Shown here: piece after piece, positions 26,779-41,420 of the stretch
Position numbering within the stretch: position 1 is the first letter of the stretch
Layout of the letters: every line of letters starts with the position of its first letter
Assembly (NCBI RefSeq): GCF_039654945.1
Contig: NW_027361812.1
Span: 15,934,001 to 15,998,000, forward strand
Origin: Dendrobates tinctorius
Taxonomy: Eukaryota
Length of the DNA: 64,000 bases
Direction of reading: 5' to 3'
The notes under the pieces: generated by a model
Told to the model about the DNA's origin: nothing
The model's database searches: none
Seen by the model: the letters and a program-made list of their open reading frames with translations, nothing else
Made by a program: the position numbers and the translations under genes

Positions 26779-27400
26779 TAATAATAATAAATAATAAATT
26801 TTATTTCTATAGCGCCGACATATTCCGCAGCACTTTACATTTCAGAGGGGACTTGTACAGACAATAGACATTACAGCATAACAATAATCACATAGATCAT
26901 AACAGATACCAAGAGGAATGAGGGCCCTGCTCGCAAGCTTACAATCTATGAGGGAAAAAGGGGAGACATGAAAGGTGGGTGGTAACAATTGCCCTGATTG
27001 TATGGACCAGCCATAATGTTAAGTGTGTATCAGTACAGACACAGAGGGCTATAGATGCATAAAGCATGTGGGAACATGATACGGGGAACCTGGTTATGGT
27101 AAACTTTTGACTGTACCACACAAGGATAGATTAGGTTAATGTGTTGAGGCGGTAGGCCAGTCTGAATAAATGAGTTTTCTGGGCACGCTTAAAATTGTAG
27201 GGATTGGGGACTACTCGTATTGACCTGGGAAGTGCATTCCAAAGAATTGGCGCAGCACGTGTATAGTCTTGGAGACAGGAGTGGGAGGTTCTGATTATCG
27301 AGGATGCTAACCTCAGGTCATCAGCAGAACGGAGGACATGGGTAGGGTGGTAGACTGAAACAAGGTAGGAGATGTAGGGTGGTGCTGAGACATGGAGTGC
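26779..27400 (-). mobile_element. L2 LINE 3' part (split by the Gypsy nest)
   Basis: (ATT)n tail; frame ALHVSAPPYIS joins the LTHK frame beyond 41127 once one TSD copy is removed. Confidence 0.85.
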
Positions 27401-28153
27401 TGTTGTGAGTTCATTTTCCCCTTCACCGTCGATGTCTGATGAACTCCCTCTTCTGGTGAAGGAAGGTAGTGAGGCTGATTACCAAACACCTGATCTGGTA
27501 GATGATGACTGGGTAACAGGAAATTCTGACTGTATATAAGGCAGCCGACGCCCTTCTGAGTTGCGGGTGATTTCTCTGCTGGATTCTTGGAGACCAGTCT
27601 GATTCCTGCTTCCCAAAGATAAGTTTTTGCTCTGCTAGTGAACTTATTAGTTTTGTTTACCTTGTTTTTTGGAGTTCAGCCATCCCCTGTCGGTGGTGTG
27701 CTGCGTTCCATTTTTGTCTCTGATCAGTTTGTCTCTTTGCTCTGTCTTCAGAATTTACCTGAGTGCTGATATAGTCTTTTTGAAGTCCTAGCGACTTCAG
27801 GGCCTGTTTTTCCTATCAGACGGTTGGGACTTTTTTTGGTAGGGTTTTTTATGGATTGCAGACAGCAGCTTTTCTATCCTGTCCTTTTTAGTTAGCTTGG
27901 GCCCCATCGTTTGCTCAACCTATCTTTCTATCTGTGTTAGTGTTTTCATCTTGCTTCACCGTCATTATATGTTGGGTGCTGCCTATTGCTTTGGGGTCTG
28001 CTCTGGGGCAGTTTAGATTTCCCCTTTCTTTCTTTAGGCCTATTTAGTTCTCCGGCTGTGATCGAGGGGTCTAGGGCATCGTAGGAACCCCCCACGGCTA
28101 CAGTTAGTTGTTGTGGATAGGATCAGGGGTCTGCAATCCGATAGCTACCAACC
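27401..28153 (+). repeat. 5' LTR, subfamily A, truncated about 70 bp before its end
   Basis: Near-identical to 40304-41060; breaks off where a second LTR begins. Confidence 0.92.
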
Positions 28154-28703
28154 TGTTGTGAGTTCATTTTTCCCTTCACCATTGAGGTCTGATGAACTCC
28201 CTCCTCTGGTGAAGGAAGGCAGTGAGGCTGATTACCAAACACCTGGGCAGCTAGATGATGACTGGGTGGCTGGAATTGAGGACTGGATATAAGGCTGCTG
28301 ACGCCCTTCTTCCTGGCTGGTGATTTTCCTGCTGGATTCTTGGAGACCAGTCTGATTCCTGCATCTCAAAGCTAAGTTTTTCTGCTCTTCTTTGTACTCT
28401 TCAGTTTTGTTTTTGTTTTGCCTTGTTTTTTGGGAGTTCTGCCATCCCCGGCCGGGGGTGAGCTGAACTCCATTTTTGTTTCTGATCTGTTGATATTTTG
28501 CTCTGTCTTCAGAATATACCTGAGTGCTGATATAGTCTTTTGAAGCCTAGCAACTTCAGGGCCTGTTTATCCTATCAGTCGGTTGGCTCATTTTGATAGG
28601 GTTTTTGCGGATGGCAGACAGCAGCTTTCCTATCCTGTCCTATGTAAGTTAGCTTGGGCCCCATCATTTGCTCAACCTATCTTTCTATTGTGTTAGTGTT
28701 TTC

Positions 28704-38688: not shown

Positions 38689-40303
38689 TTACTGACCACA
38701 AGAATTTGATTTACCTGGAGTCGGCCAAGCGCTTGAATCCTAGACAGGCTAGGTGGGCCTTGTTTTTCACACGTTTTGATTTTGTGGTCTCTTTTCTTCC
38801 GGGCACTAAGAATGTCAAGGCAGACGCCCTCTCTAGGAGTTTCCTTGCTGATTCTCCTGTTGTGACTAAGCCTGCTACCATCTTAGGCGAGGGGGTAGTT
38901 CTTTCTGCCATCTCGCCCGATTTGAGACGTGCTCTGGAAGCGTTTCAGGAGGACAAACCTGAGCGTTGTCCCAGTGGAAAGTTGTATGTTCCTGACCAGT
39001 GGAGGAAGAGAGTGATGTCTGAAGTTCTTTGCTCTGCATTGGCTGGTCATCCAGGTATTTTTGGTACTAGAGATCTGGTGAGTCGTTCTTTTTGGTGGCC
39101 CGCCTTGTCTCGTGATGTCAGGAATTTTGTGCAGTCCTGTGGGACTTGCTCTCGGTCTAAACCTTGTTCTCGCTCTAGTGGGTTCTTGATGCCTTTGCCG
39201 GTGCCAAGGAGGCCATGGACCCATATTTCAAAGGATTTTATCTCTGATATGCCTGTCTCTCAGAGAATGACTGTTATTTGGGTGATTTGTGATAGATTCT
39301 CTAAGATGGTCCATCTTGTACCACTCCCTAAGTTGCCATCTTCCTTGGTGCCCTTGTTTTTGCAACAGGTGGTTCGCTTGCACGGGATTCCTGAGAACAT
39401 TGTATCTGACAGAGGAGTTCAGTTTGTGTCTAGATTTTGGAGGACTTTCTGTTCCAAGCTGGGAATTCAGTTGTCCTTCTCCTCTGCGTTTCACCCTCAG
39501 ACCAATGGGCAGACGGAGAGAACAAACCAGACTTTGGAGTCGTATTTGAGATGTTTTATTTCTGCTGATCAGGATGATTGGGTTTCATTTTTGCCCTTGG
39601 CCGAATTTGCTTTAAATAATAGAGCTAGTTCTGCCACTTTGATGTCACCTTTTTTTTGTAACTTTGGGTTTCATCCTCGATTCTCTTCAGGGCAGGTGGA
39701 GCCTTCTGCCTGCCCAGGCGTTGACACTGTGGTGGAGAGAATGCACCAGATCTAGGACCAAGTGGTGGATAAGTTGTCTCTCTCCCAGGAAAAGGCCCAG
39801 CGGTTTTCCAACCGGTATAGAACCATTGGTCCCCAGTTTAAGGTGGGTGATATGGTTTGGTTGTCATCAAAGAATATCGCTATGAAGGTGGCTTCTCCAA
39901 AGTTTAAACCTAGATTTATTGGACTTTACAAGATTTTGGAGATTCTTAATCCAGTCTCTTTTTGATTGGCTCTTCCTGTTACATTTAAAATCCATAACGT
40001 GTTTCATAAGTCTTTGTTAAAGAGGTTTGTTGAGCCAGTAGTTCCTGTGGTGGCACCTCCTGACCCTGTATTGGTTGAAGGTAATGTGGAATATGAGGTT
40101 GAGAAGATACTGGATTCTCGCCTGGCTAGACGGAGACTCCAGTATTTGGTTAAATGGAAGGGTTATGGCCAGGAGGATAATTCTTGGGTCCCTGCATCTG
40201 ATATTCATGCCGAAAGATTGGTTCGTGCCTTTCATCGGGCCCATCCTGATCGCCCTGGTGGCGTGGATGAGGGTTTGGTGACCCCTCCTCAAGGGGGAGG
40301 TAC

Positions 40304-41126
40304 TGTTGTGAGTTCATTTTCCCCTTCACCGTCGATGTCTGATGAACTCCCTCTTCTGGTGAAGGAAGGTAGTGAGGCTGATTACCAAACACCTGATCTG
40401 GTAGATGATGACTGGGTAACAGGAAATTCTGACTGGATATAAGGCAGCCGATGCCCTTCTGAGTCGCTGGTGATTTCTCTGCTGGATTCTTGGAGACCAG
40501 TCTGATTCCTGCTTCCCAAAGATAAGTTTTTGCTCTGCTAGTGAACTTATTAGTTTTGTTTTGTTTACCTTGCTTTTTGGAGTTCAGCCATCCCCGGTCG
40601 GGGGTGTGCTGAGTTCCATTTTTGTCTCTGATCAGTTTGTCTCTTTGCTCTGTTTTCAGAATTTACCTGAGTGCTGATATAGTCTTTTTGAAGTCCTAGC
40701 GACTTCAGGGCCTGTTTTTCCTATCAGACGGTTGGGACTTTTTTTGGTAGGGTTTTTTACGGATTGCAGACAGCAGCTTTTCTATCCTGTCCTTTTTAGT
40801 TAGCTTGGGCCCCATCGTTTGCTCAACCTATCTTTCTATCTGTGTTAGTGTTTTCATCTTGCTTCACCGTCATTATATGTTGAGGGCTGCCTATTGCTTT
40901 GGGGTCTGCTCTGGGGCAGTTTAGAATTCCCCTTTCTTTCTTTAGGCCTATTTAGTTCTCCAACTTTGATCGAGGGGTCTAGGGCATCGTAGGAACCCCC
41001 CACGGCTACTGTTAGTTGTTGTGGATAGGATCAGGGGTCTGCAATCTGATAGCTACCATCCTCGCCGGTTTTCTGGACTTAGCTTGGATTTTTGGTTTTT
41101 CCTCCTTCGGTGACTCATTCATAACA
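40304..41126 (+). repeat. 3' LTR, subfamily A
   Basis: TGTT...AACA, follows the PPT, matches 27401-28153. Confidence 0.95.
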
Positions 41127-41420
41127 GAGTGCTTTGTGGGTGAGGGCAATAAGTTTGTACTGGATTCTGGAGTGGATGGGTAGCCAATGTAAGGACTGGC
41201 ACAAGGTAGAGGCATCGGTGTAACGAATGGCGAGGAATATGATCCTGGCTGCAGCATTCAAGACAGATTGGAGGGGGGAAAGTTTGCTAAGAGGGAGACA
41301 GATTAGAAGAGAGTTACAATAGTCCAGACGAGAATGAATAAGAGAAACAGTAAGAGTTTTTGCAGAGTCAAAGGTAAGAAAAGGTCGAATTCTAGAAATG
41401 TTTCTAGAAATGTTCCTGAT
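41127..41420 (-). mobile_element. L2 LINE ORF2 fragment
   Basis: SRLDYCNSLL, LQSVLNAAAR, LHWLPIHSRIQYK, typical of the L2 ORF2 C-terminus. Confidence 0.9.

Follow-up and report, generated by a model that had tools for sequence, protein, structure and literature searches.

The locus at positions 27395-41132 of a 64,000-nucleotide window of the Dendrobates tinctorius genome (contig NW_027361812.1, positions 15,934,001 to 15,998,000; the window is this whole stretch, and positions below are counted from its first letter) raises the question whether retrotransposons found nested in each other's long terminal repeats (LTRs) were directed there by their own integrase. Three chromodomain gypsy subfamilies, here called A, B and C, are nested at this locus. 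Their arrangement probably reflects a high copy number in combination with the local base preference of the integrase, and not recognition of the family's own LTR. The anatomy was read by self-comparison of the window and direct reading of the sequence, domains were assigned with Pfam, and a 6.36-Gb genome, in which the window was placed as G000:C144, was searched for further copies.

The outer element A lies on the plus strand between two intact copies of the target-site duplication (TSD) GAGTGC, found by direct reading at 27395-27400 and 41127-41132. Its 5' LTR (27401-28153) ends after 753 bp with the bases CCAACC and is followed by the first 550 bp of the 5' LTR of element B (28154-28703, plus strand), which starts with a precise TG and carries a TATA box at offset 135 and a complement of the primer site at offset ~160-172. 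Element C follows in full length and inverted (28704-34468, minus strand), with gag-pol in several broken frames; its 3' LTR spans 28704-29500, its internal region 29501-33671 and its 5' LTR 33672-34468, and the TSD GTTTTC flanks it on each side. The second copy of this TSD (34469-34474) opens the remaining part of LTR-B (34469-34744, plus strand), and the internal region (34745-40303) and the complete 3' LTR of A (40304-41126, plus strand) close the nest. This order of parts, the cut of LTR-A at offset 753, the intact outer TSD and the absence of both a 3' LTR of B and the last ~70 bp of the 5' LTR-A had all been described in a sequence-only reading of the window and were found in place.

The chromovirus identity proposed in that reading was confirmed by the gag-pol domain order with SH3_Tf2-1 and Chromo. 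Pfam recognized gag, protease, reverse transcriptase (RT), RNase H, integrase, SH3_Tf2-1 and Chromo at the locus, with the chromodomain PF00385 at the integrase's C-terminal end in both elements, and Ty3 Gag-Pol was the best match in the PDB and the best solved relative (E 5e-129). Kimura two-parameter (K2P) distances were 0.11 between the LTRs of B and A, 0.145 between B and C and 0.157 between A and C; because these distances reach 0.11-0.16, A, B and C are three subfamilies of one family. Within elements the LTR pairs differ by 0.026 (A5'/A3') and 0.023 (C5'/C3'), so that the ages of the A and C insertions are indistinguishable.

To which element the internal region belongs was determined from sites diagnostic for the subfamilies in a comparison set of 14 real A-type and seven real B-type copies. 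Both halves of LTR-B are B-type and both A LTRs are A-type. Between 34790 and 39075, 62 of the 66 diagnostic sites are B-type (three A, one neither), whereas from 39152 to 40263 A-type bases occupy 35 of the 38 sites and B-type bases three. The B-derived part (34745-39075, plus strand) comprises the primer site, gag, protease, RT, RNase H and the start of the integrase; the A-derived part (39152-40303, plus strand) comprises the integrase core, the chromodomain (40080-40262) and the polypurine tract. The crossover, whose mapping had been suggested as a check, falls inside the integrase between 39075 and 39152, or at the latest at 39566 if the only two diagnostic sites between 39152 and 39566 are discounted.

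The history put forward earlier, with B entering the 5' LTR of A, a B/A recombination between internal regions and C entering LTR-B, is supported by the diagnostic sites. B would have entered the 5' LTR of A at 753 bp, in the same orientation. Recombination between the ~95%-identical internal regions of B and A would then have deleted ~5 kb, made up of the 3' end and 3' LTR of B and of the LTR tail and 5' internal part of A, and C may have entered the B-derived sequence either before or after this deletion, as may a miniature inverted-repeat transposable element (MITE) described below. A solo-LTR model for B, with a crossover in the LTR tails, was ruled out, since the tail of LTR-B is B-type, as are 4 kb of the internal sequence.

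The MITE, a fourth insertion at the locus, had been overlooked in the first reading. It measures 1.36 kb (37325-38688, no strand assigned), lies within the B-derived RNase H and has a TTA TSD, terminal inverted repeats and an array of interstitial, telomere-like CCCTAA/CCCTGA repeats. Near-identical copies (97-99%) are present elsewhere in the genome (L056, L057, L065 and L160). With its TTA/TAA TSD it is presumably Harbinger-like.

Whether the family enters its own LTRs more often than other DNA was assessed by counting family termini in 60-bp windows beside fixed anchors, followed by inspection of the loci. The genome holds 28,685 + 27,492 = 56,177 LTR starts, corresponding to ~38,800 insertion events once 3' LTRs are removed. 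Raw pattern counts were discarded as a measure of nesting, because fold-back elements, deletions and insertions into other DNA dominate at LTR offsets 217-277; in that window and in the U3 window the automatic classifier was too strict for distant subfamilies, and hand classes were used. At offsets 57-117, 38 rows were found, of which 29 were used (among 30 inspected, 23 were insertions by hand and 18 by script). All 42 rows at 217-277 were inspected; fold-back elements, deletions reaching the polypurine tract and non-LTR targets accounted for most of them, and seven insertions were verified by TSD and seven were of uncertain class. The 521-586 window gave 89 rows beside 67,468 anchors, with 29 of 30 inspected rows real (15 verified by TSD) and 83 used, and the 706-766 window gave 72 rows, 70 of them inspected (26 verified, 26 candidates), of which 48 were used after duplicates and doubtful rows had been discarded. 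One flank control yielded 32 rows, of which 25 were unique and 22 lay in host DNA; a second yielded 61, with 46 unique and ~35 real neighbours. As a further control we used an unrelated LTR, selected by word frequency before any counting, in which 28 family insertions were found in 22,844 copies; inspection of 20 loci gave six insertions verified by TSD, 12 full-length insertions whose far end lay beyond the locus and two of uncertain class. The element carrying this LTR (L370-L377, G000:C1) has LTRs of ~1.2-1.3 kb in pairs 3.1-3.9 kb apart and at least 22,844 LTR copies.

Expressed per 1,000 copies per 60 bp, the own-LTR rates were 0.52, 0.12-0.25, 1.23 and 0.85 for the 57-117, 217-277, 521-586 and 706-766 windows, respectively, with a mean of 0.70 versus 0.38 and 0.60 for the two flanks; the unrelated LTR reached 1.23, and 0.37 is expected for uniform insertion. 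The two own-LTR windows that were picked without regard to the locus were not above the flanks. The unrelated LTR is older, with seven LTR pairs at 93.5-97% identity versus a family median K2P of 0.018 (30 pairs). Assuming that own LTRs were exposed half as long, the ratio of own to unrelated rates is 1.18 (95% confidence interval 0.78-1.82), and assuming three-quarter exposure it is 0.78 (0.52-1.21). The age-corrected excess over uniform is ~3.8x for the own LTR, ~3.3x for the unrelated LTR and ~2-3x for the flanks. The proposed check for enrichment in family LTRs gave a divided result: own LTRs received more than their genomic share, with an estimated ~1.4% of events in 0.36-0.7% of the sequence (extrapolated from four 60-bp windows), whereas specificity over unrelated repeats and flanks was not found with the one control family and one window used. 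The LTR-directed self-targeting put forward earlier is not supported, as the unrelated LTR and the flanks are enriched as well.

In the 706-766 window, opposite-orientation insertions outnumber same-orientation ones by ~3:1. This skew in the LTR tail could stem from recombination having removed same-orientation nests, as at the locus.

Within LTRs, insertions pile up on single bases at A-offsets 66, 577, 581, 727-734 and 753. Tens of thousands of near-identical LTRs would serve as replicate targets, on which the best bases would show as hot spots. The family TSD, as seen in solo LTRs and in the window, is 6 bp long with G/C at both ends, and 385 host half-sites revealed a preference for A at position -3 (59%) and for G or C at both TSD ends (>80%). 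The unrelated LTR also has single-base hot spots, with six, five and four of its 28 insertions; its best base is ~40x above uniform versus ~90x for offset 581, the latter being the best among four times as many positions. At offset 581, 20 insertions were counted by eye in the same and 19 in the opposite orientation, without the skew of the LTR tail. Propagation of one compound LTR as the source of the hot spots was rejected on account of these balanced orientations and of the differing target and insert subfamilies and outer flanks. A spacing of ~170 bp between hot spots (66-71, 581, 753) was seen, yet the window near 240 is cold, and no such spacing is claimed.

Several results weigh against copy number and local base preference as the whole account. 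Offset 581 takes 39 of the 84 GGGCTG-TSD junctions genome-wide (38 unique), while the genome contains an estimated 2.3-4.9 million GGGCTG hexamers, which places this offset at ~40-150x the per-site rate of the other hexamers. The base-frequency model built from the 385 host half-sites gives it just 2.6 bits and, rejected as a full account, fails to predict the hot spots. That the determinant of the offset-581 hot spot is not explained by this model is the strongest result on the opposing side. The rate of the best site per copy is 5.6e-4 at offset 581 versus 2.6e-4 in the unrelated LTR (~2x), and the difference grows with age correction. The two windows holding the insertion sites of the locus are 1.4-3x above the flanks and, age-corrected, ~1.4-2x above the unrelated LTR; both were picked because those sites lie there, a choice that favours the self-targeting idea. 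In addition, several counts were extrapolated from inspected subsets, the denominator of the 706-766 window was assumed to equal the number of LTR starts, and the control consisted of one 60-bp window of one unrelated family, the own LTR being covered over 240 of ~810 bp.

The alternative that survives best, which we regard as possible though doubtful, holds that the chromodomain steers the integrase to silenced LTR or transposon chromatin in general, own LTRs included, and that a positioned nucleosome sets the hot bases. Own and unrelated LTRs alike are enriched (~3-4x above uniform after age correction), as are flanks (2-3x), and the hot spots exceed the base-frequency model, in line with such a class-directed preference. 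The internal region of the family received only six to eight insertions in the flank searches versus ~10 expected by hand estimate. The chromodomain retains the three aromatic residues (Y/W/Y, read by eye in the translation), and the MAGGY domain of the same group binds H3K9me2/3 (histone H3 di- or trimethylated at lysine 9) according to the accessible text of PMC3350952. Base composition could give the same 2-4x, however, since host flanks have 47-49% GC versus mostly 39-44% in the non-repeat bins of the window, and the sequence around 424 host sites showed, by eye, no dinucleotide periodicity of 10 bp. There may be a class-wide bias towards LTR or GC-rich transposon chromatin.

In a narrower version, which appears unlikely, the chromodomain would guide the family to a nucleosome positioned in the U5 part of silenced LTRs of its own, and partial self-targeting would lie beneath a broad preference for LTR chromatin. 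Such guidance would account for the capture, by offset 581, of almost half the GGGCTG-site insertions of a 6.4-Gb genome. We give little credence to recognition of the own LTR as such, through a bound factor or LTR chromatin. The share of events estimated for own LTRs and the strong, reused offsets, hit in both orientations and across subfamilies, are in line with it, but an unrelated LTR has an equal per-copy rate and comparable hot spots, one own-LTR window lies below the flanks, most of the 42 rows at 217-277 dissolved on inspection, and an estimated ~98.6% of events fall elsewhere. Local base preference acting on very many copies remains the reading that we favour.

The junction at 28153/28154 had been named as a possible misassembly. 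Its pattern occurs once in the genome, and public contigs from four runs, aligned to 28060-28250, are too fragmented in this repeat to bridge or contradict it. At the junction an exact LTR end abuts CCAACC, without remnants of a primer site or polypurine tract. Family insertions occupy the CCAACC site at seven other loci (eight rows, one duplicate), four of which (L193, L197, L229 and L349) are two-ended with both TSDs and continuing target. The GTTTTC site of C is also reused by the family, with L312 verified. Both LTRs of a new retrotransposon complementary DNA (cDNA) are identical. That the junction pre-dates integration, with the end of a B cDNA joined to an A cDNA, or is an assembly join of two subfamilies, is highly improbable in view of this clean terminus at a site with complete two-ended insertions elsewhere and of an all-B 5' LTR with an all-A 3' LTR, which recombination during reverse transcription does not yield, even though the second end and TSD of B are gone so that a two-ended insertion cannot be demonstrated at the locus, A and C are of indistinguishable age, aberrant integrated cDNA forms occur in the family and reads do not bridge the junction.

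Nests of this depth are expected to recur. With ~1% of LTRs estimated to be hit, ~5 three-level chains would be expected genome-wide under uniform activity. Among 163 nests checked, four were flagged as three-deep, and one of them is a complete second example (L289/L407, at G000:C75:20936478-20943890), composed of an older LTR, a solo LTR (TSD GACCAA) and, at offset 66, an inverted copy of full length; both inner levels have TSDs. The other three were an adjacent arrangement, a fold-back and one of uncertain structure. Tandem series of a different kind were also seen. At L337 (G000:C200:3196756-3199407) a 914-bp unit is locally duplicated in tandem, giving three solo A-type LTRs in a row with identical flanks, and at G000:C1:11.14-11.60 Mb the regular spacing of ~18 LTR starts with just two flank types suggests a large tandem segmental array.

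The fold-back elements, which inflate naive nesting counts, are arguably more unusual than the nest itself. Genome-wide, 146 junctions were found at which LTR bases 1-172 join an inverted full LTR at the complement of the primer site. Inspection of 25 gave eight ~990-bp units that have a U3 end at either side together with an exact 6-bp TSD, three with both ends and no matching TSD, and 14 that were truncated or rearranged; examples in G000 are L384, L387, L392, L400, L403 and L406 (locus 1367-2360). In similar forms the fold lies at other offsets (L108, L111, L136, L138, L141, L143 and L144). The complement of the primer site sits ~25 bases past the TATA box, and 11-12 of 14 bases match for A and B at offset 160, with a poorer match for C. 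Variants of the primer site and of the R start covary between subfamilies, 42 copies having one variant pair and 36 the other. Together the fold-back junctions and this covariation point to Tf1-type self-priming in the family, with a transcript 5' end that is predicted from sequence. We infer that plus-strand strong-stop DNA folded back on its own complement before integration.

The family has the domain order of Ty3/gypsy elements (gag, protease, RT, RNase H, integrase), TG...CA LTRs, a polypurine tract and a TSD. As far as the accessible portions of PMC6317226 and PMC4600332 describe them, the Tf1/sushi chromoviruses (Tf1, Maggy, Sushi-ichi, Amn) share its domain order, SH3_Tf2-1, group I chromodomain, TG...CA LTRs and a primer site that is complementary to the 5' end predicted for the transcript; self-priming of the Tf1 type is described in the same sources. 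Unlike that group, the family has a 6-bp TSD with G/C ends, and its assignment to a clade is tentative. In the available sections of these two papers, 6-bp TSDs make up 0.4% in a plant survey, 4-5 bp being usual, and Tj1 has 5 bp. For plant LTR retrotransposons, the accessible text of PMC6911290 reports that nesting grows with element number and that same-family nesting occurs in some gypsy families. The present case resembles this 'autoinsertion' in its link to copy number, its same-family targets and its non-random choice of sites; plant LTRs are given there as the least targeted part, whereas here LTRs are at or above the flanks and above the few internal windows seen. The parts of PMC2836564 that could be consulted report that most insertion types of human transposons, LTR elements included, concentrate at set positions in the consensus of the target, often off the known motif, and that self-insertion hot spots (Alu in Alu) occur in the human genome; the elements differ, and the hot spots described here are used equally in both orientations. 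The MAGGY chromodomain targets H3K9me2/3 heterochromatin, as cited in the accessible text of PMC3350952, and the family resembles MAGGY in chromodomain group and in the three aromatic positions. A literature search, mostly out of reach of subscription papers, returned nothing direct on LTR self-targeting or on 6-bp TSDs in vertebrate chromoviruses and no direct description of fold-back or inverted-LTR integration.

Elsewhere in the window, a Tc1/mariner transposon (20914-22562), whose inverted repeats measure 211 bp (96%), has a minus-strand transposase frame of 323 codons. Minisatellite arrays at 17462-20084 and 60833-62977 have units of ~48 bp and 70 bp, the second array being partly inverted.

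In summary, the locus is an ordinary product of a burst that left 56,000 LTRs, and two nested insertions are not readable as targeting without a control repeat. The fold-back copies and the covariation of the primer site support, at the genomic level, Tf1-type self-priming in a vertebrate family. Finally, of use as both method and dataset, the nested copies constitute a base-level landing map of a vertebrate chromovirus integrase, with hot spots beyond a simple motif, and such a map lets chromodomain and nucleosome models be tested in an animal genome.

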